From a virus, in UHGV virus genome UHGV-0195556: a stretch of 28,630 nt of DNA. One strand, given 5' to 3'. The translations under genes and the position numbers were made by a program. Below are positions 811 to 13,967 of this stretch, piece after piece. How positions within the stretch are numbered: position 1 is the first letter of the stretch; each line of letters starts with the position of its first letter. The notes beneath the pieces were generated by a model that made no database searches, was not told where the DNA came from, and saw only the letters and a program-made list of their open reading frames with translations.

Positions 811-1210
811 GAATGTGATTAATGAATTAAGAAATTGATTTTTATGAATATAAAATTTTTATTGTCATAATTCTATACACTTAGTTATACACATAAGAAA
901 AAATCAGTGATTTTTATGGACTGGGTGTATCTTCCCCAGCCCAGCCCAGCCCCAACAAACCTAATGCAGTCTTTAGTTTACAAATTGTTACATATATTAT
1001 TCGTCAAATTTCATTATTATCAGAGATTAACAAGCATTGGCAAAGGTTGTCACTCAGTAATACTCACCATTATTAACTATTATTCACCATTATTTAGTAT
1101 TCAAATTCTTTGAATGAGTTTGAAAGTGCCAGTCTTTACGTATTAATTCTTCTGTGCAAGTATATATACACCCAATAGAGACTAATTAAGTCTTAGTATA
1201 AATATCTAAT

Positions 1211-1453
1211 GTGAAGGACATAGCCATGAGCTTATTGCCTCGGGAAAACGCACCCCAAAAAAGATATAGACTTCTGAGAATATCAGAAGTGATTAATTTG
1301 ACTGGCTTACCCAAGTCAACAATTTATCTAAAGATAAAGAATGATGAATTTCCGAACCAAGTTTCTATCGGTTCTCGTTCTGTTGCATGGGTGGAGCATG
1401 AAGTTAATGAATGGATAGAGAAGAATATTCTCAATAGAAAATTAAACTCCTAA
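1211..1453 (+). CDS. AlpA-family phage regulatory protein (small DNA-binding activator/excisionase-like)
   Basis: 80-aa ORF with MerR-like HTH typical of AlpA family; first gene inside the att boundary; AlpA is a marker of P4-like satellites. Confidence 0.7.
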   Translation: MKDIAMSLLPRENAPQKRYRLLRISEVINLTGLPKSTIYLKIKNDEFPNQVSIGSRSVAWVEHEVNEWIEKNILNRKLNS

Positions 1454-1470
1454 ATTGAGGTGGCAAATAT

Positions 1471-2331
1471 ATGGTTGACAATGTTTTTAAGAAGAAATTG
1501 GCATCAATTAAGAACGAACATGTGTCGGTGTTAGATAGTTACAAAGTAAGATCATTTAAAGAGACTCATAGCGACACGGCCTGTATTGTGCGTATTATTG
1601 AAATATATTCACTGAATAAGCTGCGAGCTAAAGGTGAAAAGCTGTATTCACTTACGGGGTTAACAGTACCTGATACGGAAACTGTGGCGAATGAGATCAA
1701 CCTGCTCCTGAGCCGTTATGCCCAGTTGTGTCGTCAGGAAGAGGAAGAGTTATCTTTCCGGCAGCGTGAAGTGACAAATGCGGAAGTTGCATGGAAAAGC
1801 ACATTCTCAAAAAACGGCGTCAGTAGCATTGCTGAAGCCAAAACGAATAAAATGGGGCATGCTGAACGAGCGGATGCTGAACGGTATTACCATCTGGCTG
1901 TTTCCCGGTTGAATGAACAACATAGTCGATTGAGCACGATCAAGCTTTTGCCGGGAGTACTGGCCGATGAAGGAAACTACATTGGGAAGGGAATCGATAA
2001 GCGTTTACTGAATATATTTCCTCAATCCGGCCAGATCCCTGCTGATTTTATTTCTGTATTTAATGACAGTGACGTTGTCCGTGATATTAAATTTATTACT
2101 GATGCACTCAAGTCTTTATCTGATTCCGTGAGTGAAATTATTAGTCGTTGTAGCGTTCCAACTGATCGTTATGTATTAAATAACGGTGGAATGGCAAGAG
2201 CTATGGCTTACAGGGAGTACTATCGAGCAGATAATTATGTATTACGTTCAGTCGTAAGTGACCGGGATTATGTTGAGCATGTAATGAAATACAATCTGGT
2301 TACTGAGTACAAAAATAAAATCTTTTCTTAA
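1471..2331 (+). CDS. hypothetical protein; candidate capsid-assembly factor by position (immediately upstream of capsid homologue)
   Basis: 286-aa ORF with RBS (GAGGTGG) 18 nt after the alpA stop; no family recognised by eye; does not match my recollection of P2 gpO or P4 Sid/Psu. Confidence 0.45.
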   Translation: MVDNVFKKKLASIKNEHVSVLDSYKVRSFKETHSDTACIVRIIEIYSLNKLRAKGEKLYSLTGLTVPDTETVANEINLLLSRYAQLCRQEEEELSFRQREVTNAEVAWKSTFSKNGVSSIAEAKTNKMGHAERADAERYYHLAVSRLNEQHSRLSTIKLLPGVLADEGNYIGKGIDKRLLNIFPQSGQIPADFISVFNDSDVVRDIKFITDALKSLSDSVSEIISRCSVPTDRYVLNNGGMARAMAYREYYRADNYVLRSVVSDRDYVEHVMKYNLVTEYKNKIFS

Positions 2332-2353
2332 ATACTTAAAAAGGTGAAAAACT

Positions 2354-3358
2354 ATGTATGCCTTCAAAACTGAAAGGCCGGACGCAGCACGTCGTTATCA
2401 TAATAAATTCGTCACTGGCACTAACTATCAGGAAGAATCAAACAGACGCTTTGCATTAAGCGAACCTACTGAAAATATACTGCGTACCTCAATTCTGGAA
2501 TCCGGGTGGCTTATTAAAAATATTACCCTACGTGATGTTAACGCCGTGTCAGGTAATGCCGTCAATATTGGTGCCAGTGAACTGTATACCGGACGTGTGG
2601 ATGGTGGCCGTTTCCACAAAAAAATGGCAATCAATGGTACGGAGTTCTTTCTGACAGAGACGGATACCTGCGCCCGGATCAGCTATTCCGATATGTCTCA
2701 TATTTACCATACCGGCGTGCCGGATGAGTTTGAGAAAACGGTTGAGAGCTTTTTTGCCCAGGCATATGCGCTGGACATGCTGCGGGTCGGTTTCAACGGT
2801 GTGTCGATTGCAAATACTACAAACCCGGAAATCAATAAAAAAGGCGAGGATGTCAATATTGGCTGGCATGCACTGGCGAAAGCCTACGGGAACGGAAAGC
2901 AAATCATCTCTGAGCCTGTCACTCTGGGAGAGACTGGCACCTGGAAAAATATTGATGCTCTGGCCAACCATCTGATTACAGAGCTTATTGCTGAGCAGTT
3001 TCGTGAAGATCCTCGTCTGGTTGTACTGGTTGGGGCAGAGCTGGCAGCACATCAACGCCTGAAGTTATTTAATGCCGCAGACCGCCCGTCTGATGTGAAT
3101 GCGGCACAGATGGCTACAAGTTCTGTTGCTGGCCGCTTTGCGTTTATTCCCCCGTTTATGCCGGGTAAGCGTCTGGCAGTAACGACGCTGGATAATCTGC
3201 ATATTTACACTCAGGCGATAACACGCTGGTTTCGTGCTGAGTTTGATGATGAAAGCAGTGAATACGTGCATTCCTACCTGCGCAATGAAGGTTATGCACT
3301 CGGTGAACCTGAACTGTACGCGGCTGTTGATGAGTGCACCCTGACGTTTGCGGATTGA
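2354..3358 (+). CDS. P2-family major capsid protein homologue (GpN-like)
   Basis: 334-aa ORF with RBS; colinear blocks match recalled P2 gpN (VGFNGV vs AGFNGV; DPRLVVLVGAEL vs DPDLVVIVGRQL; LDNLHIY vs LENLSIY; ESGWL vs ESSDFL). Confidence 0.65.
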   Translation: MYAFKTERPDAARRYHNKFVTGTNYQEESNRRFALSEPTENILRTSILESGWLIKNITLRDVNAVSGNAVNIGASELYTGRVDGGRFHKKMAINGTEFFLTETDTCARISYSDMSHIYHTGVPDEFEKTVESFFAQAYALDMLRVGFNGVSIANTTNPEINKKGEDVNIGWHALAKAYGNGKQIISEPVTLGETGTWKNIDALANHLITELIAEQFREDPRLVVLVGAELAAHQRLKLFNAADRPSDVNAAQMATSSVAGRFAFIPPFMPGKRLAVTTLDNLHIYTQAITRWFRAEFDDESSEYVHSYLRNEGYALGEPELYAAVDECTLTFAD

Positions 3359-3371
3359 CTTAGCGACAGAA

Positions 3372-3398
3372 AGACCCGCTCAGAGGCGGGTCTCGTTT
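3372..3398 (+). terminator. putative rho-independent terminator after capsid gene
   Basis: Inverted repeat AGACCCGC / GCGGGTCT with 6-nt loop followed by a short T-containing tract. Confidence 0.4.
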
Positions 3399-3496
3399 AC
3401 AGCATCAGGAAAAATGAAGAACTATTTTTAAGCAGAGGCTTAAGCATGCCAGCGTTAATTAATCCAGGCAATGATCAGTTTTCGGTTATAAATTTC

Positions 3497-3526
3497 TTGC
3501 CTCACCAGGAATGCGCGGGATATAGT
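3497..3526 (+). promoter_or_regulatory. putative sigma70 promoter driving the immunity/replication operon (P4 PLE analogue)
   Basis: TTGCCT then 18-bp spacer then TATAGT, located upstream of the seqA-like element. Confidence 0.3.
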
Positions 3527-3556
3527 TTAAAGGTTGCCGCAAAATCGGCAGCCGGG

Positions 3557-3581
3557 CGTAGGAACCCGTGTTATCTGAAGG
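3557..3581 (+). promoter_or_regulatory. seqA-like target site of the immunity RNA
   Basis: GCGTAGGAAC...TATCTGAAGG, repeated at 3781-3821 and complementary to 3735-3756. Confidence 0.5.
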
Positions 3582-3588
3582 CGATACT

Positions 3589-3611
3589 ACACGCGCTAGG
3601 CGTGTTTTTTT
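3589..3611 (+). terminator. rho-independent terminator directly downstream of the seqA-like site (immunity terminator candidate)
   Basis: Stem ACACGC/GCGTGT with 5-nt loop followed by TTTTTTTGTGT. Confidence 0.55.
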
Positions 3612-3696
3612 GTGTCGCAGCTTTGACTCACCTAAAATTTATGGTGTGGTGGCTGATTGTATTTTTTTATTTTTTACGCCACATCATCAGAATTAT

Positions 3697-3775
3697 GGTA
3701 GTCCAGGCGGGGCAGCTTTCGGGCTGGCCGGTATCCTTCAGAGCCGGTATTCCTACCCCCGTCTGGGCTACCACC
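3697..3775 (+). ncRNA. structured small RNA, P4 CI-RNA-like immunity factor candidate
   Basis: 16-bp closing stem GGTAGTCCAGGCGGGG / CCCCGTCTGGGCTACC (two G-U pairs) enclosing internal hairpins; interior segment CCTTCAGA..TTCCTAC is complementary to both flanking seqA/seqC-like repeats; no credible ORF. Confidence 0.5.
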
Positions 3776-3780
3776 CATGA

Positions 3781-3821
3781 GCGTAGGAACTCCGGTGGTA
3801 GCGTTACCCGCTATCTGAAGG
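3781..3821 (+). promoter_or_regulatory. seqC-like target site of the immunity RNA
   Basis: Second copy of GCGTAGGAAC...CTATCTGAAGG immediately upstream of the RBS of the next CDS. Confidence 0.5.
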
Positions 3822-3832
3822 AGGTTGCCATT

Positions 3833-4036
3833 ATGGCTACAGTCCCTGCTTTATCTCACCCTGAATTTACCTTTGTCTTTCTGGCTGTCCGCCGTACAGA
3901 CCGTGATGCCCGTCCACGCCCTGTGCGTGTAATCGCAGAATGCGAGCATGCTGCACGCCTTAAACTTGCCACTGAATTTATCCTGAGCTTTGCTGCCCGT
4001 ATCCCTGTGAAAAGAGCCGGGGAGGTGGTTGCATGA
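3833..4036 (+). CDS. hypothetical protein (first gene of the replication operon)
   Basis: ATG preceded by GAAGGAGG; stop overlaps the next start (ATGA); the 196-aa track ORF 3446-4036 is rejected upstream of this ATG. Confidence 0.5.
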   Translation: MATVPALSHPEFTFVFLAVRRTDRDARPRPVRVIAECEHAARLKLATEFILSFAARIPVKRAGEVVA

Positions 4037-4269
4037 AATCCATGAATTTTAAGCAAGGCTGCATATTGAGTGAACAGGGGGAGAGTCGTCTGTTACGGGC
4101 GGCACTGGCCAGTGAGTTTCTTGCAGAGGTCTTGTCCGTGCCCACAGTGAATGGAGCGAGAACTGTTTCAGCGGAAGGCGCTGCGGCTTTAGTGGCCTGT
4201 ATTGCCGAACAACTGGATGGCGTTGTTAAGGAAACCAGCACAATTAAGGGAGTGATGCGCGATGAATAA
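4033..4269 (+). CDS. hypothetical protein
   Basis: 78-aa ORF translationally coupled to neighbours on both sides. Confidence 0.5.
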   Translation: MKSMNFKQGCILSEQGESRLLRAALASEFLAEVLSVPTVNGARTVSAEGAAALVACIAEQLDGVVKETSTIKGVMRDE

Positions 4270-4672
4270 TAATCAAAATTTAAAGGCGCATGCTTTACGA
4301 ACAGCAGTCTTACGCTACTACATTGCTGATGCATTCATTTCCTTAATGGTGCGTGTTCATAATGAACCTGTTTATATTGAAGATGGCGAACGAATAGAAC
4401 TCTCCCACGAAAAAGTGGTGAGTAATATTATTTACCATATTGAAATGCCGTGGGTGAATGAGTTTGGGGCTGATGCTGGTTGCATACTGGCCGCAGAGAA
4501 ACTGGAAAAAATGCTTAAACCAGGCTTTATGTCAGAAAATATTCGCCTGTCAGTTTTTGGTGTCACAGAGATGCGTGAGGTTTACCGGGATATTATTTTC
4601 GGAGCACCTGATGGCGAACTACCCGAAGGTTTTGAATTTGTGAAGCCGGAAGGTCAGGAGGTGCTGCTGTGA
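4262..4672 (+). CDS. hypothetical protein
   Basis: 136-aa ORF; stop overlaps the GTG start of the primase gene. Confidence 0.5.
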   Translation: MNNNQNLKAHALRTAVLRYYIADAFISLMVRVHNEPVYIEDGERIELSHEKVVSNIIYHIEMPWVNEFGADAGCILAAEKLEKMLKPGFMSENIRLSVFGVTEMREVYRDIIFGAPDGELPEGFEFVKPEGQEVLL

Positions 4673-7356
4673 AAACACCGTCTGTATCCACGATTTCCGG
4701 AGCTGCAATTGGGCGCTGGCCTTATATCCTGTCAGCATTAGGTATTAAAGTACCGTCCGCAGGACATCATGGGGCTTGCCCTGCCTGTGGTGGAAAAGAT
4801 CGTTTTCGACTGGACGATAAAGCGGGGCGAGGGACGTGGTTTTGTAATCAGTGCGGTCATGGCGATGGTCTTGATCTGGTTCGTCTGGTGACAGGAAGAA
4901 AGATAAAAGAAGTCGCCGGGATGGTATCTGAGGCGCTTGCATTACCAGAAATACAGGAGAAGCCCGCATTGCCAGCCAGGAAAAAGGCCGCAGGAAAAGA
5001 AGCGGGCGCGGAGCGATATACCAGACTCAGACAGCAGTCCTGCAATGGTGAGCCGGTCTATCTGACAAATAAGAGCTTACACGGGTATTCACTTCCCTTG
5101 CTGTCACAGCCTTTGAATCTGGCCGGAATAACATTTTCCACCGGTTCATTACTGCTGCCTTTGACGGATATTTCCGGGAATATTACTGGTGGCCAGCTTA
5201 TCAATCCTGACGGGGATAAAAGTCTGCTGCCCGGTAGCCAGCTGTCTGGCGCATTCATTGCCCTGACCGATATACCCGCTGAAACACCTGAACAGGTGAT
5301 TATCACTGAGGGTTTTGCCACGGCGCTTACCGTCAGTCTGCTGACTGAAGGATGGATCGTGGCGGCTGTCGCTGCCACCAATTTACTGAAGGTGACGGAG
5401 CAGATCCGAAAACGCTGGCCGGAAACCCGGATCATTCTGGCCGGAGATAATGATCTGGCTGACGGCAAAGAAAACACCGGGCGTATTCAGGCAGAGAAAG
5501 CCGCCAAAGCGGTGGATGGCTGGGTAACGCTCCCTCCGGTACGCCATAAGGCTGACTGGGATGATTATCGGCAGGAAGTGGGGAAAGAACGGGCGAGAGA
5601 TGCCTTTCGTGAAGAAATGACGCTGCATGGCAAAGGGCAGACCCGTTTACCAGAAGGGTTCCGGCTGACAAAAGAATATTTGTGGTACGACAAGCTGGTT
5701 AATAAGTCTGATGGTGATACAGAGATACGTAATATCAAAATTTGCAGTCCGTTGCGGGTGACGGCAATCACCAGTGATGCTGATGGAAGTAATTACGGGC
5801 GTTTGCTGGAATGGGAAGATACCAACGGAAACAGCCGTAAATGGGCAATGCCGATGGAGATGCTGGGCGGTAGCGGGGAAGAACTGCGCCGCGTTCTGCT
5901 GGTTAACGGGCTTTCTTACATCAACATTAACGGCATGGCCAGAGCATTCCTGATGGAATATATCTCGCTGTGTAAACCGGACAGAAAAGTAACCTGTGTG
6001 AATAAAACTGGCTGGCACGGCGGGGTTTACGTTCTCCAGGATGAAGTGATAGGGCGCGAAGCCCAGTCAGTCATCTTACAAACATCGAGTGTGCAGGGGC
6101 GTGATTTTCGTGTCAGCGGCACATCAGAGGGCTGGCGTGAAAATATAGGCCGTTATTGCATAAAGAATGCCCGTCTTGCCTTTGCGGTGAGTCTGGCATT
6201 TGCTGCCCCCCTTCTGAAACTGGTTGGTATCGGCGGTGGAGGTTATCACCTCAAAGGGGAATCCACAGACGGTAAAACCACGACGATGAAAGTGGCTGCA
6301 TCAGTATGTGGTGGAACAGATTTCTGGCATACGTGGCGGGCGACGGGGAATGCCTTAGAAGGAACGGCGAGCCGCCGCAATGATGCCACGCTGATGCTGG
6401 ATGAAATCCGGGAGGTTGACGGCAGGGAGGCGGGAAATATCGCTTATATGCTGGCTAACGGGCAGGGCAAAGCCAGAGCCAGAACAGATGGTTCGGTAAG
6501 GGAAACCAACCGCTGGAATCTGTTGTTTCTGTCTACCGGGGAACTGTCACTGGTAGAGCATGCGGCAAGCGCCGGGGAACGTACGTATGCCGGGGTTGAG
6601 GTCAGAATGATCCAGATCCCAAGCGATTCGGGCAAGTATGGCGTGTTTGAAGAACTTCATGGCTTCAGTAGCGGGAAAACCCTGGCTGAGCATCTTGAGC
6701 AGCACGTAGCGCATTATCATGGTGCACCATTCCGCGACTGGCTGTATTGCCTGACCGCTGATCTGCCGGAACTGACCAGTCAGGCGAAAGCCTTATTGAA
6801 AGAGTATACCCGAAGGCTGACGCCGGAAAATGCCGGGAATCAGGTTGGCCGGGCTGTTACCCGTTTTGCTCTGGTTGCGATGGCCGGGGAGCTGGCCACA
6901 AAAGCGGGCATCACAGGATGGCCGGAGGGAGAGGCCTTTCGTGCCGCTCAAAGCTGTCTGGCTGCATGGATGGCTGACCGGGGCCATACAGCTAATCAGG
7001 AAGATAAAGCGGCACTTGAACAGGTTCGGGACTTCATGACGCGTAATCAGTTCAGTCGGTTTGCTGACTGGAATGACGACAGGAACCGGCCTGTTTCAAT
7101 GATGGGATTCAGAAAAGTCGATAAAGGAGACAACGTGACAGAGCCGGTTGTGACGTTCTACGTTCTCCCGTCAGGCTGGAAGGAGATCTGTAAGGGATTT
7201 GACTCGCGTAAGGTGGCCAGGTTGTGTGTGGACGCGGGCTGGCTGAAACCCGGTGAAGATGGCCGGACGCAAAACAGCATTCGCCTGCCAGAAATAGGGC
7301 TTAAACGTGTGTACCAGTTCAATACACAGGTACTGGGAAGCGCTGAACCTGAGTGA
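4669..7356 (+). CDS. P4 alpha-like bifunctional DNA primase/helicase (zinc ribbon + TOPRIM + P-loop NTPase)
   Basis: 895-aa ORF with GTG start after AGGAGG; N-terminal CPACGG...CNQCGH zinc-binding motif; TOPRIM-like ITEGFATAL..AGDND; Walker A GESTDGKTT. Confidence 0.8.
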   Translation: MKTPSVSTISGAAIGRWPYILSALGIKVPSAGHHGACPACGGKDRFRLDDKAGRGTWFCNQCGHGDGLDLVRLVTGRKIKEVAGMVSEALALPEIQEKPALPARKKAAGKEAGAERYTRLRQQSCNGEPVYLTNKSLHGYSLPLLSQPLNLAGITFSTGSLLLPLTDISGNITGGQLINPDGDKSLLPGSQLSGAFIALTDIPAETPEQVIITEGFATALTVSLLTEGWIVAAVAATNLLKVTEQIRKRWPETRIILAGDNDLADGKENTGRIQAEKAAKAVDGWVTLPPVRHKADWDDYRQEVGKERARDAFREEMTLHGKGQTRLPEGFRLTKEYLWYDKLVNKSDGDTEIRNIKICSPLRVTAITSDADGSNYGRLLEWEDTNGNSRKWAMPMEMLGGSGEELRRVLLVNGLSYININGMARAFLMEYISLCKPDRKVTCVNKTGWHGGVYVLQDEVIGREAQSVILQTSSVQGRDFRVSGTSEGWRENIGRYCIKNARLAFAVSLAFAAPLLKLVGIGGGGYHLKGESTDGKTTTMKVAASVCGGTDFWHTWRATGNALEGTASRRNDATLMLDEIREVDGREAGNIAYMLANGQGKARARTDGSVRETNRWNLLFLSTGELSLVEHAASAGERTYAGVEVRMIQIPSDSGKYGVFEELHGFSSGKTLAEHLEQHVAHYHGAPFRDWLYCLTADLPELTSQAKALLKEYTRRLTPENAGNQVGRAVTRFALVAMAGELATKAGITGWPEGEAFRAAQSCLAAWMADRGHTANQEDKAALEQVRDFMTRNQFSRFADWNDDRNRPVSMMGFRKVDKGDNVTEPVVTFYVLPSGWKEICKGFDSRKVARLCVDAGWLKPGEDGRTQNSIRLPEIGLKRVYQFNTQVLGSAEPE

Positions 7357-7380
7357 TTATCGCGTGAGTCTTATTTTTAT

Positions 7381-7570
7381 GAGGTAACACTGGTAACAGA
7401 GGTAACACCCGTTACTGATGCGGTTCTTCAGTGTTACCAGTCAAAAATACTGACTGGTAACAGAGGTAACAAAAAATGGTGTGTTACCACGCGTTACCTC
7501 TTGATTTTGCTAACTGGTAACAGATTAAATCCTTTTAAATCAATAGCGTTACACGTGTTACCAGTGTTAC
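7381..7570. repeat. iteron array, candidate satellite replication origin
   Basis: At least 9 copies of GGTAACA / TGTTACC in both orientations within about 190 bp immediately downstream of the primase gene; resembles P4 type-I iterons (TGTTCACC) as recalled. Confidence 0.6.
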
Positions 7571-7638
7571 ACGTTCAGAACAAGAGGTAGGGATCCAAAT
7601 CCCTTCTTCTGGCGGGCAACAGTATAGGGCACAGAACG

Positions 7639-7911
7639 ATGAAGATGATGAGAATGTACTGCCCCACATGTCAGGCAGTAGCACGGATAGGTAAAACAAA
7701 CAGGAAACACCCACAACTGTACGATGTGTACTGCTATTGCTCTAATGTGGAGTGCGGTCACTCGTTTGTGATGAATGTTGCTTTCTCCCATTCCGTTAGT
7801 CCAAGCGCGCTGAACGGGCAGGGAAGGGTTAAAGAGCTGATTGATGCAATTCCACCCGAGGAACGGGAAAAGGCTTTAAAGTTGCTGCTGGCTGCGCAAA
7901 AGAATGGGTAA
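7639..7911 (+). CDS. Ogr/Delta-family zinc-finger late-gene transcriptional activator
   Basis: CPTCQ...CYCSNVEC four-cysteine motif as in P2 Ogr / P4 Delta; exact start codon uncertain (several in-frame ATG). Confidence 0.7.
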   Translation: MKMMRMYCPTCQAVARIGKTNRKHPQLYDVYCYCSNVECGHSFVMNVAFSHSVSPSALNGQGRVKELIDAIPPEEREKALKLLLAAQKNG

Positions 7912-8590
7912 AGTATGCGTCGGGAATGGCCGATCTGTTCCCGGAACCTGAACACAGGATTTCAGTTTATACGGTCATAAAATTATTATTTTTCAACTGG
8001 TTATCTTCTTCATGTTTCACAAACCTTCATAAAATCACACACCTAAAATTAATTATCCATTTAATATCATAGAGTTGCGTATTCAGGCCATAGATTCGAC
8101 GGACAGTAAAACTGAAAAAAAATGAATTTCTTTTCATTCTTTTCAGTTCCTGTATCGCAGTACATCTCGAGGACTGGCACGGACTGGCGGTATCGTTTGT
8201 AAAAAATCCAGGCTGAAAATTTTTAGTGATATGAAAACCGCAGGCGGGTGCGGTGTAGTGCCGTTTTGGTCTGTCGAGCGTATATTTTCCTTTTTCACGA
8301 TTGCTGCATATCAAAACGAATGTGCAGATATCAGGCCGTGTCAAACCGTGAATCGTGGAGCCTAAATGCCCAAACTACGTTTGTAGACCTAGCTAGGGGA
8401 AGGTTTCCACATATACTGCTACCTATCTTCCAGTCGCTGGTGAGGATCAAGGTAAGCTAACTGGTGAACAAGAAAAGTACTTTCGTATCTTGCGTACTCG
8501 TTTTTTTTGATTAGTATGTACAGGTAGTAACTGGATGGTGAGAATTCGTCATAACTTATCAAATTGCATGATGTTTATAGAGTATGAGTA

Positions 8591-9472
8591 ATGAGTCATA
8601 ATAAAAAGGAATATGCTAAATTTTTCCGTCGCCCCATTTTTTCATCCTTAGCAAAAGGTAAGGATATTTCGGATTTATTTGGGAGTTTTGATTCTTACTG
8701 CTATGAAACACTGTTTTCAAACAATGATAATAATGAACATGAGATTTCACTAAGGGATTTATTTACATCATTATATGATTTTTTGCGTCTGAATTATAGA
8801 AATGAATATGTTTATAAGACAGCACTTGTCAATAAAATAATATTCGGTAAGCACAGCCCAAAAACAAGTTCGTCGTCCATAGAGTTACCAATTAAAAACT
8901 CTATAGTGGATGTTGCGGTGTTTAATGGTACGTCTACAGCTTACGAGATTAAGACAGAGTATGATTCACCAAAAAGGTTGATTACTCAAGCCCCTGATTA
9001 TTTGGATGTTTTTGATAAAGTGTATATAGTTACACATCCAGAGTATGCAAGTAAATATTGTGCTTTAAATCTCCCCAGAGTGGGAGTTATGGTTTTGAAT
9101 AAAAAAGATCAATTGAGTGTCATTAAGGAGGCAGATTCAAATATTGATTATATTAAAAGTGACAGCTTGTTTTCAGTTCTTAGAAAGGAAGAGTTCTTAG
9201 CTATAATAGAAGATTACACTTCAACTAAAATAAATATGCCTAACGGATTGGTTTATGAATATTGTAAAGAGATATTCATGCAGATGCCATTAAACATAGC
9301 AAATAAATACTTTATCTCTGCTATGAAAAAAAGATGTAACGATAAAGTTTTTTTGGATTATATTTATTCTCTTCCAGCATGTTTACGTGTTTTAGGTTAT
9401 GCAACACCATTATCAAGAAAGCAAAAAGAATTCATCATGAATTTGATGGATGTAAAAATTAAAATTTGTTGA
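8591..9472 (+). CDS. hypothetical protein with PD-(D/E)xK-like nuclease motif; cargo gene A
   Basis: 293-aa ORF in strongly AT-rich DNA; motif SIELP...IVDVAVF...AYEIKTE fits an E...D...ExK restriction-endonuclease-like signature. Confidence 0.55.
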   Translation: MSHNKKEYAKFFRRPIFSSLAKGKDISDLFGSFDSYCYETLFSNNDNNEHEISLRDLFTSLYDFLRLNYRNEYVYKTALVNKIIFGKHSPKTSSSSIELPIKNSIVDVAVFNGTSTAYEIKTEYDSPKRLITQAPDYLDVFDKVYIVTHPEYASKYCALNLPRVGVMVLNKKDQLSVIKEADSNIDYIKSDSLFSVLRKEEFLAIIEDYTSTKINMPNGLVYEYCKEIFMQMPLNIANKYFISAMKKRCNDKVFLDYIYSLPACLRVLGYATPLSRKQKEFIMNLMDVKIKIC

Positions 9473-9493
9473 TATCCTCAGGAGTTGTAAGTT

Positions 9494-10444
9494 ATGTATA
9501 GCCCATATTTGTATGCGAGAAGTACAGAGTTATTATGCCTTAGGGACCTCGTTGCGAAGGGAGTTAGCCTAAATGGTCTGCTACCAATTTTAGAACCAAT
9601 TAACGTCAATACGAGAAATTTATTAACATGTTTAAATGTTTGGAATTCTGACATAATTGTTATCCTTAATCCTTATCAGGAAGATTTTTCTTCACACAAT
9701 AACGTCTTAACTTTAAATCAAAATTTATCAAGTGTATTAACAAATAAAAATAATATCATCTCTGGATATCTTATTCAGCCCAATACAACGATTAATGATA
9801 TTAATAATTGGTTGAATGCTAACTTAAATAGACGAGTTGCACTTCTATATGATAATCCATCATTATCCAACTCTGATATTCAGTTGTTGGCGACAAATCA
9901 ATTGATTAGTTATCATGTTGTTTTAAATAATAAAATGCTTCCTAATCAGTGCGCTCTTCTTCCTTTGTCGAAGTTAATTATTATTAGCGATAACTTTAGA
10001 AAGTTAGCAAAAAATGCTGATTATAATGGGCCGGAACTTTTCACGCACGCACATCAATTCGTGGGACAAAATTACTTAGGATTTGGCGATTATACAATTA
10101 CTGGCCAGGTACTAGATCTTGGAGGTGGTCAACCTTCTGCTGTTGCCGCACATTTGGTGTTCAAGAATTTACAAGCGAATACAGTTTGGATTCGTCATTT
10201 TGTATCAAGCAACACGCAACGAGGAAGTTCAAATGTTACTGCAAAATTTTTAGATGTTTCAGATCAAATTACAAATCTTGTTCCCCAACATCCAACCCAG
10301 TTTGGCAGCAACATTGGTCTTAACTATTATTATTACAATAGTCAACCAACTGTAAGGCATTTCCCTGGGTTGCCAAAAAACAAACAGTATCAAATTACTC
10401 ACCATATTTGTTTCATGCTGGATTTAATAGCAGGTCGTATTTAA
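9494..10444 (+). CDS. hypothetical protein; cargo gene B
   Basis: 316-aa ORF with AGGAG RBS 21 nt after gene A, same AT-rich composition; contains GFGDY and LDLGGGQPSAVAAH motifs; 3' end overlaps the convergent integrase by 21 bp. Confidence 0.55.
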   Translation: MYSPYLYARSTELLCLRDLVAKGVSLNGLLPILEPINVNTRNLLTCLNVWNSDIIVILNPYQEDFSSHNNVLTLNQNLSSVLTNKNNIISGYLIQPNTTINDINNWLNANLNRRVALLYDNPSLSNSDIQLLATNQLISYHVVLNNKMLPNQCALLPLSKLIIISDNFRKLAKNADYNGPELFTHAHQFVGQNYLGFGDYTITGQVLDLGGGQPSAVAAHLVFKNLQANTVWIRHFVSSNTQRGSSNVTAKFLDVSDQITNLVPQHPTQFGSNIGLNYYYYNSQPTVRHFPGLPKNKQYQITHHICFMLDLIAGRI

Positions 10445-11599
10445 TAAGCTAGCGTACCATTCCATCATTACTTGTCGATCTTTAATATATTGCGCATGAT
10501 TGTAAGTACCTCGAATAGAGTTCTTATCAACATGCGCAAGCTGCATTTCAATCCAGGCACTTTCAAACCCATGCTCATGCAAGATGGTGCTCATGGTATG
10601 CCTGAAACCGTGACCCGTTAACCGACCGTGATAACCCAGTAGTTTTATCACTTTGTTGATGCTGGCTTCGCTCATTGGTTTACTGACGTCATTCCGGCCA
10701 GGGAAAACGAGGCTGTAATTCCCTGTTATTTCTTGCAGCTTTTTCAGGATATTGATCGCCTGAGTTGATAACGGAACCAGATGGGGGCGGCGTTTCTTCA
10801 TCCGTTCTTTGGGGATCTCCCATAAGGCATTATCTAAATCAAACTCAGCCCATTCCGCTGCACGTAGTTCAATTGTTCGCACGCCTGTTAGCATCAACAG
10901 CTGCGTGGCGTATTTGGTAACTAAACTGCCCTGATAGTTATCCAGAGCATTAACGAACTCGGGCAACTCGCTTTCAGTCAGGAACGGGAAGTGTTGGGTT
11001 TTAGGTTTGTTGAGTGCGATAGCTAAATCGGGTGCAAAATTATACTTTGCTCTACCAGTGGCAACAGCATAACGAAGCACTTCACCACAGCGGCGGCGGA
11101 TCTTACTGGTTTGCTCTAGCGCACCTCTTTTCTCTATTTTTTGCAGGACGGTTAGCAGTTCTAATGGTTCAATCTGCTCAATTGGGCGCTGGCCGATAAA
11201 AGGAAAAATATCCTTTTCCATACAATTGAGAACCTCTTTTGCATAACCCTCTGACCAGGTGGCTTTTTTCGATGAGTGCCATTCTCTGGCCACAGACTCA
11301 AAGCTGTTCTCATGCGCGAACTGCAAAGCAATCTTATCTGCTTTTCTGGCTTCACTTGGGTTTATCCCGTTGGCTAACATCGAACGCGCTTCATCACGTT
11401 TGGTACGTGCCTGTGCCAACGACACATCGCCATATACGCCAAAGGAAATCATCTTAGGCTTACCTGCAAAGCGATAGCGAAAACGCCAGCCTTTACTGCC
11501 CGCTGTGTCGATCAGGAGTGATAGCCCCATACCATCGTTAAGCGTATAGGGTTTGTCCTTCGGTTTTGCTCTTTTTATTTGGATGTCAGATAGCAGCAT
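10424..11599 (-). CDS. tyrosine recombinase, P4-type integrase
   Basis: N-terminal AKPKDKPYTLNDGMGLSL...WRFRY and C-terminal HGFRHT...Y motifs typical of P4-family integrases; start taken at MLLSD (the upstream in-frame ATG at 11647 is less likely). Confidence 0.85.
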   Translation of the reverse strand: MLLSDIQIKRAKPKDKPYTLNDGMGLSLLIDTAGSKGWRFRYRFAGKPKMISFGVYGDVSLAQARTKRDEARSMLANGINPSEARKADKIALQFAHENSFESVAREWHSSKKATWSEGYAKEVLNCMEKDIFPFIGQRPIEQIEPLELLTVLQKIEKRGALEQTSKIRRRCGEVLRYAVATGRAKYNFAPDLAIALNKPKTQHFPFLTESELPEFVNALDNYQGSLVTKYATQLLMLTGVRTIELRAAEWAEFDLDNALWEIPKERMKKRRPHLVPLSTQAINILKKLQEITGNYSLVFPGRNDVSKPMSEASINKVIKLLGYHGRLTGHGFRHTMSTILHEHGFESAWIEMQLAHVDKNSIRGTYNHAQYIKDRQVMMEWYASLLNTTCY

Positions 11600-11758
11600 G
11601 TGTATAGAAAAAAGATCGAACTCAGTTATACACAATGTTATACGCAAAGATGTATAGATTCCATTAGAAATAATGGTACTTTGCTGGACGAGTATAAGGA
11701 GATGATATCAGTTAAAACAGTGAGTTATGGAATTAATTGAACTTAGTGAGAAGTGTTC

Positions 11759-11774
11759 ATGGTGTCCCCTGCAG
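11759..11774. repeat. att core copy 2 (ATGGTGTCCCCTGCAG), junction between satellite and lambdoid prophage
   Basis: Exact copy of 795-810; about 75 bp from the torI stop. Confidence 0.7.
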
Positions 11775-12361: not shown

Positions 12362-12661
12362 TTAATCGTCAATGTATTTTGAGCATTGTGGGCAATCATC
12401 AATCCCACAATACGATTCATATGCATCCTTTATTGCGTCGCGGGCTTCAGTAAGAGTATTGAATAAGTTGCAGCTATTATCTTTTTGATATAGGTAAGTT
12501 CCTAATTTATAAGCAGAAGAAGCATCATTTCCGCTGTCTAAAATTACATCGTTATGGATTCTGCACCTTGCAAGAACTCCTGATCCCATAAGGGTCTGCA
12601 TAGCCCATTGCTCTTGATCTTCACACAAATCATGAATGCTCATTTCAACACCTCTCTTCAC
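12362..12661 (-). CDS. hypothetical cysteine-containing small protein
   Basis: 99-aa ORF in an AT-rich island; C-terminal CGIDDCPQC motif; start may be the internal MSIHDL. Confidence 0.45.
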   Translation of the reverse strand: MKRGVEMSIHDLCEDQEQWAMQTLMGSGVLARCRIHNDVILDSGNDASSAYKLGTYLYQKDNSCNLFNTLTEARDAIKDAYESYCGIDDCPQCSKYIDD

Positions 12662-12757: not shown

Positions 12758-13426
12758 TTATAGCTCCTTTAATCGAGGCGGTTCTGGTAGAGGCATCCAG
12801 TGGGTTACCTCTTTGAGATACAGGTCTTCGCCATCACCGTCATCCCAAGTTGGATTGCCATCATTAAACCAGTCGACATATACGCCGACCTGAGTGTTGG
12901 GGATGTTTGGTGGGTAGTTGTTTTTAAAGTCAGCTGCTAACACATAGCATTGTCGCTCTCCCATTTCTGGCATTCGCTCACTACAGCTTATCCAACCATC
13001 CGGAGTTACCGGATAGTTGCCGGGTTCTTTAATGTGCAAGCGAGGCTCACCATCTTTTGGCTCAGGCCACTGGCGCTCCATGTTGATCTTCAATTTATCT
13101 TCCATAGCAGCGGTAATTTCAGCATCGCTGATGCCAGCACGGCGCTGTGCATCCCACAACAGAAACTGCATATCAGCCCACTCGCTAAGATCGTCTGGTT
13201 CGGCTGCGGCTTCAAGTGCCTCTTTTGAGAGATGTTTCAGCGGACCAATGGGGCCAACGCAGCCAAATGTGGAGTCAGACCATTTGGCATGCTCGTGGCG
13301 AATCTGTTCGCGTTCCAGTGATGCCAGTGCAATTCGTGCCAGTTCCATTTGTTCGCCACGAGTAAGTCCGTTATCAAGCGGATTTTTAATGAATAATTTG
13401 ATACGTTCTTTGGTTATAGCGCTCAT
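12758..13426 (-). CDS. phage early protein with DUF551-like C-terminal domain
   Basis: Start at MSAITK with AAGGAG RBS, immediately after the upstream stop; C-terminal W/D-rich segment typical of DUF551 proteins of lambdoid prophages. Confidence 0.5.
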   Translation of the reverse strand: MSAITKERIKLFIKNPLDNGLTRGEQMELARIALASLEREQIRHEHAKWSDSTFGCVGPIGPLKHLSKEALEAAAEPDDLSEWADMQFLLWDAQRRAGISDAEITAAMEDKLKINMERQWPEPKDGEPRLHIKEPGNYPVTPDGWISCSERMPEMGERQCYVLAADFKNNYPPNIPNTQVGVYVDWFNDGNPTWDDGDGEDLYLKEVTHWMPLPEPPRLKEL

Positions 13427-13427
13427 A

Positions 13428-13967
13428 TCACTCTCCTTTGATGCGAATGCCTGTTGCAATGCTGTTTATGATGCTGTCAGTGCATGGGGTAGAAAGCTGG
13501 GCATCTCCAGCAATTCTCATGACCTCAACATCTGCATATCGAATACCGAGGTGTATCAGACCGGCTATACCTGACTTAAGCCGAGCATTTTCCATAAACA
13601 GATCCTTTGCCCGCTGTTTTTCTGCCTCAAGCTCAACGCGCAACTTCCCTACCGTTAACGCAATATCCTCGTTCTCTTGGTCGCGGCGTTTGATGTATTG
13701 CTGGTTTCTTTCCCGTTCATCCAGTAGTGCAAGCACGGTAGCCGGATTAGCCCTGGCAACAAAATCCCGGACTGGCTTACAACCAATCTCCGCAATGGGT
13801 TGATACGATGTGTAGCCATGCTGTCTTGTATAACTACCGTGACGAATAACGAAAAAATCACCGTTTATTTTTTTTTTAGCTTGCCACTTATCTTTACCGG
13901 CTTTCACTGCCGCCTCACGCAGTGCCTGATAGTCAATCTTGCTCACTGCTTGCCTCCTTTGCGCCAC
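13428..13967 (-). CDS. Ead/Ea22-like early protein
   Basis: [12 protein letters not shown] motif and coiled-coil region as in Ea22-like proteins. Confidence 0.5.

Follow-up and report, generated by a model that had tools for sequence, protein, structure and literature searches.

We analysed a block (positions 7912-10444) of the virus genome UHGV-0195556 (28,630 nt; this whole stretch of DNA is referred to below as the window). The block is located in a satellite related to phage P4, between an Ogr/Delta-like gene and the gene of a P4-type integrase, and contains two genes, designated A and B. The segment from position 8272 to approximately 10487 is probably (we put the probability at roughly 0.6) an anti-phage module related to the gop-beta-cII system of P4, and is best read as a two-gene, gop-less, co-directional relative of this system, placed in the hotspot of a psu-less subfamily of satellites. 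We infer the defence role from comparisons of protein families, of the hotspot and of known systems. The cassette is a defence candidate on account of (i) its homology to two components of the validated gop-beta-cII system, (ii) the presence of PARIS or Old nucleases in the same slot of related satellites, and (iii) the recruitment of a RES-domain gene by its relatives. The families of A and B, sce7726 and sce7725, are already known as NCBI family names. The cassette is a solid, testable defence candidate and not a categorically new system.

The predicted nuclease A, the TIM-barrel protein B and their partnership

In the table of open reading frames (ORFs), gene A (8591..9472, + strand, 293 aa) and gene B (9494..10444, + strand, 316 aa) are co-oriented and closely spaced, and the 3′ end of B overlaps by 21 bp the convergent integrase gene (10424..11647, - strand), exactly as described in the original prediction, which was made from the sequence alone. 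No third ORF is listed in this table between 8272 and 10487. Reading of the sequence revealed an AGGAG ribosome-binding site (RBS) within the 21-nt spacer separating A and B, 9 nt before the ATG codon of B, which fits a single A-B operon. The G+C contents of A (0.306) and B (0.340) are below those of the alpha primase gene (0.533), delta (0.480) and int (0.461) in the flanks. The block had been described as AT-rich throughout; this holds for the two genes (31-34% G+C), but the 679-bp "leader" (7912-8590) is merely moderately AT-rich, its G+C content (0.40) being lower than that of the backbone and higher than that of A and B.

The product of gene A is a member of the sce7726 / Phage_P4_cII family with a PD-(D/E)xK nuclease fold and predicted nuclease activity. 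Profile hidden Markov model searches, proposed as a check in the original prediction, assigned A to NF033832 (sce7726; 175.6 bits, cutoff 70, E 9.6e-52) and B to NF033831 (sce7725), and PADLOC recognised A alone, through its "cll" model PDLC02989 (gop_beta_cll; 1.2e-18). P4 cII itself obtains 151.4 bits with NF033832 and is thus also a member of sce7726. A cluster 100% identical to A (P0074) carries the Pfam family PF26915 (Phage_P4_cII). A local Pfam search gave no useful match for A, and a search of PDB sequences with the A-family and B-family profiles yielded no relatives.

The E...D...ExK signature that had been noticed in A consists of residues E98 (SIELP), D107 (IVDVAVF) and E119/K121 (AYEIKTE). 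None of these residues, nor D125, R129 or Q133, varies among 35 homologues or in any of the 80 loci encoding A-family proteins (from many phyla) that were retrieved with the alignment of A, and P4 cII retains the D, E and K of the PD-(D/E)xK constellation. The fold of A contains a restriction-endonuclease-like alpha/beta core, in agreement with the nuclease assignment, and its neighbours are mainly the restriction endonucleases PaqCI, SdaI, BglII and NgoMIV, plus NucS.

The match of B to NF033831 (242.2 bits, cutoff 60) extends over practically the whole profile, residues 2-311 aligning with positions 1-311 of 312. Of 67 sequences, at least 64 retain residues E12, E34, N59, D199, H220, H235, S238, K297, H303 and H304, and the two motifs that had appeared conserved on inspection, GFGDY (G196, G198, D199) and GGGQPSAVAAH (G211...H220), are invariant or nearly so. 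To judge from the sequence, these conserved polar residues suggest that B is an active enzyme. The original prediction could assign no fold to this protein; it can now be assigned a TIM barrel, of the (beta/alpha)8 type. The only match of B in the local Pfam search, to NAD_synthase (E 0.11), is noise.

The similarity of B and P4 Beta is not significant in BLASTP. Alignment of the B family with P4 Beta using hhalign gave a probability of 87% (E 4e-6, 271 columns) and, with larger alignments, 94.5% (E 7.5e-8, 280 columns; nearly full length), and the negative control, the B family against the A family, had a probability of 0. B and P4 Beta also have in common an N-terminal YxPxLxxRxxE motif and a G-D motif. 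These profile comparisons point to a remote but robust homology of B to P4 Beta. The early guess of an sce7726/sce7725-type pair was right, and the suspected link to P4 holds through cII, itself within sce7726, and through Beta. The sce7725 family is large, with 1,493 clusters at 50% identity among 1.84 billion representatives and a spread across bacteria, and PHROGs includes both the A and B families with no function assigned.

In a BFVD fold search, the sole specific viral match of B was protein A0A5J6TRS2 of Gordonia phage Powerball (E 2.5e-9, TM 0.64/0.55, full length), which, as far as the modelled structures indicate, may be an actinophage Beta-like protein. This phage was not recovered by tblastn with P4 Beta, and membership of A0A5J6TRS2 in the Beta family could not be shown.

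The 80 A-family loci span Enterobacterales, Burkholderiales, Acidobacteriota, Mycobacterium, Desulfobacterota, Bacteroidota and Nitrospirota. In approximately 70 of them a B-family gene is located directly downstream of A on the same strand, the exceptions being mostly contig ends, so that the co-occurrence anticipated for a functional pair, in the operon order A-then-B, is observed across phyla. A RES-domain gene is present immediately 3′ of B in 27 loci (among L036-L081), six of which also contain HEPN_RES_NTD1; sce7726-sce7725-RES is an undescribed three-gene architecture. One of the RES-domain proteins (L036:7709-8722) has an N-terminal CxxC zinc-ribbon-like motif. Other neighbours of the A-B genes include integrases, parts of restriction-modification (RM) systems of types I and III, as well as TIR and AAA_21 proteins. 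B homologues occur on plasmids too, and the distribution of the pair is sporadic and mobile, involving both plasmids and satellites.

Beta-family loci of Pseudomonas, Methylibium and Acinetobacter contain a small ORF, Beta and a convergent cII, as in P4. The combination of a cII-type nuclease and a Beta-like TIM barrel is therefore seen in each of two sister lineages, which argues that the two proteins function jointly. A Beta homologue (38% identity, - strand) placed beside a cII/sce7726-like ORF (+ strand) was also found in Pasteurella phage Pmp11 (OR544128.1, 10546-12426), and the Beta-cII pairing is thus present in a full-size phage too.

The hotspot, its boundaries and the satellite

The original prediction placed the two genes in the variable cargo locus of P4-like satellites, and the content of this locus in sibling satellites supports this view. 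In siblings with the same backbone, the slot between delta and int is occupied by (i) an AAA-ATPase and a DUF4435 protein, scoring as AriA/AriB (PARIS) in PADLOC, (ii) an Old-family ATP-dependent nuclease (PADLOC Old, 1e-57), or (iii) in the sibling from pig isolate A5 (L086:6183-7631), a single ORF of 482 aa. The latter has no Pfam or PADLOC match and is a further candidate for a defence gene. The P4 hotspot was defined by Rousset et al. (2022; PMC9122126) as the region between psu and int, beside cos, and their survey was anchored on Psu. In the window, the left flank of the slot is the Ogr/Delta gene, not psu, and the variable cargo adjoins int. A subfamily without psu falls outside such a survey. 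Neither the A and B peptides nor their RefSeq WP accessions were found in the searched part of the supplements of that study, a partial coverage by which absence from its catalogue is not proven.

Comparison with the siblings also defined the borders of the cargo. Their sequences are 93-96% identical to the window until position 8271, then diverge, and homology returns from 10483-10488. The swapped segment thus runs from 8272 to ~10487, and 7912-8271 belongs to the satellite backbone. This moves the start of the cargo from 7912, where it had been placed originally, to about 8272, and the possibility that the entire 7912-8590 leader is cargo was rejected on the same evidence. The features of the region are as follows.

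7639..7911, + strand: Ogr/Delta-like zinc-finger gene (Pfam Ogr_Delta 5e-14); backbone, left flank of the hotspot, kept in siblings with other cargo
7912..8106, no strand: non-coding backbone spacer, outside the cargo; 93-96% identical in PARIS-carrying siblings, G+C content 0.369
8107..8271, no strand: conserved cis element at the cargo breakpoint; invariant 24-mer and CTGAAA/TTTCAG repeats
8272..8590, + strand: cargo-specific upstream region; sibling homology ends at 8271
8591..9472, + strand: gene A, sce7726 / Phage_P4_cII; PD-(D/E)xK core between helical N- and C-terminal regions
9480..9484, + strand: AGGAG RBS of gene B, from reading of the sequence
9494..10444, + strand: gene B, sce7725, TIM-barrel fold; remote homologue of P4 Beta
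10424..10487, - strand: last ~20 codons of int, forming the right edge of the cargo; sibling homology is back at 10483-10488, G+C content 0.328
10424..11647, - strand: P4-type tyrosine integrase, right flank (Pfam Arm-DNA-bind_3, Phage_int_M, Phage_integrase; 40% identity to P4 Int)

The last ~20 codons of int (10424-10487) are situated within the swapped segment, and every cargo thus brings its own C-terminal tail of the integrase. The last cargo gene of the siblings likewise lies directly against int or extends into it, with an overlap of 16-22 bp in the case of PARIS. The promoter of the A-B operon is presumably located within 8272-8590. A scan of this upstream region for sigma-70-like promoters gave matches no more frequent than in shuffled sequences, and no promoter was identified; an Rfam search of 8272-8590 gave no match, and a repeat search of 8250-8620 revealed nothing remarkable.

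The 165-bp non-coding element at the left border (8107-8271) contains the invariant 24-mer CCGCAGGCGGGTGCGGTGTAGTGCC in addition to the CTGAAA/TTTCAG repeats. It is also present, with 76-79% identity, in satellites of Morganella and Pantoea and in a further 22 loci of E. coli, one of which (L085) adjoins P2-like tail genes. A cos/packaging site and a recombination anchor are both possible roles of the element. It lacks the P4 cos 19-mer and shows no similarity to the P4 cos region, which is why we do not claim it as cos.

The satellite itself carries genes typical of P4 relatives: orf88-like, P4 cI-like / Ash-Icd-like, alpha-like primase and P4-type integrase genes. It also contains an ORF of 286 aa (1471-2331), followed by the gene of a major capsid protein of the P2 family (2354-3358; Pfam Phage_cap_P2, 1e-66). 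The traits of the subfamily were read over the satellite region 1200-11774, and no homologues of psu and sid were found in the window. Two Rfam matches, isrK (3533-3610) and the C4 antisense RNA (3691-3778), lie over the 5′ part of the Ash/Icd-like gene (3446-4036), in what is the RNA immunity region of the P4 type.

In strain SK1144, the same element is inserted at tRNA-Arg, between dsdC and yfdC. The homology of the window to argW-integrated siblings stops at ~11774, and the window contains no tRNA gene. Beyond this point lies a lambdoid prophage, with an ea8.5-like gene (12362-12661) and a dATP/dGTP pyrophosphohydrolase-DUF551 gene (12758-13459). To judge from the end of the sibling homology and the adjacent prophage, argW seems to hold the satellite and the prophage as a tandem insertion.

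Of 5,426 complete E. coli genomes, about 420 contain an identical cassette, among them those of EC958 and JJ1887, reference strains of sequence type 131 (ST131). A P4-like satellite of this kind is typical of pandemic E. coli ST131, and the cassette is fixed in the ST131 lineage. In several ST131-type genomes (e.g. NZ_AP022549.1, NZ_CM190141.1 and NZ_CP107120.1) the A/B module is broken by IS1, ISEcp1 or IS4321, which suggests repeated inactivation; in NZ_AP022549.1, the sce7725 gene is annotated as two pieces. A "sce7725 family protein" has been detected by proteomics in uninfected clinical isolates of E. coli, with a more than 4-fold higher abundance in aminoglycoside-resistant isolates (PMC8203672). 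This difference is most simply explained by the protein being a marker of satellite-carrying ST131 and not a mechanism of resistance. If the detected protein is B, then gene B is expressed without infection.

Relation to known systems and probable function

The closest known system is gop-beta-cII, which protects against lambda and P1 (PMC9122126). An accessory gene of a phage sets off its toxicity (preprint 10.1101/2023.04.06.535777), and the orf184 protein is a trigger of the system. Like the window cassette, gop-beta-cII is a cargo located beside the integrase gene of a P4-like satellite. Its cII protein and A represent one family (NF033832 / PF26915) with common PD-(D/E)xK residues, and its Beta protein and B are remote homologues. 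P4 Beta is described as counteracting the toxicity of Gop (Ghisotti 1990, as cited in PMC9122126 and PMC7643966).

Several observations weigh against the view of the cassette as a defence module of this kind. The gop gene, encoding a small toxin with two transmembrane segments, has no counterpart in the cassette (P4 Gop had no tblastn match in the window at E 1e-2), and B matches neither Beta_protein (PF14350) nor the PADLOC beta model at E<=1. The arrangement is also different: P4 has gop, Beta and a convergent cII, whereas the window has two co-oriented genes with the nuclease gene first, and A is longer than P4 cII by ~65 N-terminal residues. The lack of gop, the failure of B with the Beta models and the other gene order mean that, by defining composition, the cassette is not gop-beta-cII. 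Moreover, it has not been worked out what Beta and cII each do in gop-beta-cII, and the analogy therefore carries little mechanism. The best solved-structure match of A is 3dnx, a representative of the MmcB-like family, with which P4 cII is also linked by HHpred; this family takes its name from a gene of DNA repair. The top structural matches of B are generic TIM barrels (lyases, aldolases, glycosidases and kinases) with no more than 12% identity, and from such generic similarity no substrate can be proposed. The RES-containing relatives keep the catalytic residues of A, and A is therefore possibly a sensor or processor and not the killer. Finally, the literature searched contained no paper testing the A/B pair or linking sce7725 to Beta.

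Three other comparisons complete this picture. P4 Beta matches the PD-Lambda-2_C models of PADLOC, and in PD-lambda-2 the Beta-family component C can be likened to B; its partners there are HigB-like and Xre-peptidase proteins, not a cII nuclease. Since B gives no match with the PD-Lambda-2_C models and HigB-like and Xre-peptidase genes are absent from the ORFs of the cassette, the latter is not PD-lambda-2. PD-lambda-2C is needed for defence and not for toxin neutralisation (Vassallo et al. 2022; PMC9519451), which supports a sensor or transducer role of Beta-like proteins. The sce7726-sce7725-RES loci share with the window pair the two families, their order, spacing and conserved residues, and add the RES gene, for which there is no room in the E. 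coli cassette because B overlaps int. In sibling satellites with this backbone at argW, the delta-to-int slot that holds A and B is taken up by PARIS (AriA/AriB) or Old nucleases, which are similarly packed against, or overlap, the 3′ end of int; their proteins (an ABC/AAA ATPase plus a Toprim/DUF4435 nuclease) are unrelated to A and B.

As the cassette contains no gop-like or other toxin gene, A is the sole candidate effector. By analogy with the systems described above, B is likely to be a sensor or gate of the nuclease, this division of labour being considerably less certain than the defence role as such. In the proposed mechanism, A and B would be co-translated from one operon, and B would sense infection or gate A, either by binding or through a catalytic step. 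Infection would lead to the release or activation of A, and active A would then cut phage DNA, or host DNA with an abortive-infection outcome. The sensing partner, the substrate of the nuclease and any contact between A and B are those that we infer for such a scheme.

An unlikely explanation is that the pair is a toxin-antitoxin or addiction module stabilising the satellite or other mobile DNA, A being the toxin, a nuclease, and B the antitoxin, with an anti-phage effect that is incidental or absent. The activity described for P4 Beta against Gop would suit such a role, as would the constant association of A and B on mobile DNA, and the disruption of the module by insertion sequences in some ST131 genomes would fit a cost to the host. 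However, B is an enzyme-like TIM barrel of 316 aa with about 10 invariant polar residues, which does not resemble a small labile antitoxin, and with catalytic-type residues intact in both proteins it is unlikely to be a passive one. The dispensability of PD-lambda-2C for neutralisation, in spite of its requirement for defence, and the presence of bona fide defence systems in the same slot of the siblings also speak against this view; the nuclease-first order is atypical of toxin-antitoxin pairs, though not excluded. A scheme resembling RM, with B modifying self DNA or the nucleotide pool (by base exchange or glycosyl transfer) and A cutting according to the absence or presence of the mark, seems highly doubtful. 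Both proteins look catalytically active, the neighbours of the A fold are mainly restriction endonucleases and NucS, and RM genes are found in several neighbourhoods; nevertheless, the match of B to a transglycosylase is no better than that to hundreds of other TIM barrels, and the Pfam and NCBIfam searches found no methyltransferase or known modification domain. Abortive infection is a better fit for relatives in which Beta partners membrane or translation toxins (Gop, HigB), and the RES-domain variants likewise favour it.

A role in the biology of the satellite or in host DNA repair (lysogeny, exploitation of the helper, or MmcB-like repair), and not in defence, is the least probable of these explanations. 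It would be in keeping with the historical, lysogeny-type name of cII, with the 3dnx match of A and the HHpred placement of P4 cII in the MmcB-like family, and with the detection of an sce7725 family protein, if this is B, in uninfected clinical isolates (PMC8203672). In siblings with the same backbone, however, PARIS, Old or an unrelated ORF takes the place of the cassette, which the satellite can thus do without. In addition, the pair is not confined to satellites, being present in Acidobacteriota, Mycobacterium, Desulfobacterota, Bacteroidota and on plasmids, and the association with RES domains in 27 loci would be unexpected for a repair function. An anti-phage module related to gop-beta-cII is the reading that we prefer.

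This reading can be extended, although we regard the extension as unlikely, to a view of Beta-like TIM barrels (Beta_protein and sce7725) as a widespread enzymatic module for phage sensing with interchangeable effectors, of which sce7726/sce7725 would be the minimal form. The effectors would be (i) the Gop membrane toxin, (ii) HigB/Xre-peptidase, (iii) RES-domain proteins and (iv) the cII nuclease. In the minimal pair, catalysis by the TIM barrel would license the nuclease, and the substrate could be a small molecule, nucleotide or DNA mark that is derived from, or altered by, the phage.

Implications

The cassette connects gop-beta-cII, PD-lambda-2C and the NCBI families sce7725/sce7726, three previously separate observations, through one conserved partnership between a cII-type nuclease and a TIM barrel. 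The cassette is missed by the 2023 PADLOC models, of which "cll" alone fires, on A, and it resides in a psu-less subfamily of satellites that was not sampled by the published psu-anchored survey of the hotspot. If Beta-like TIM barrels do act as sensors of phages, the pair would represent a mode of defence so far undescribed for enzymes with this fold. Being the simplest form of the partnership, with two genes and no separate toxin, it is suited to working out the role of the Beta family, a question that dates from 1990. With carriage in ~420 of 5,426 complete E. coli genomes, the cassette could influence how susceptible a pandemic clone is to phages, a point of relevance to phage therapy.

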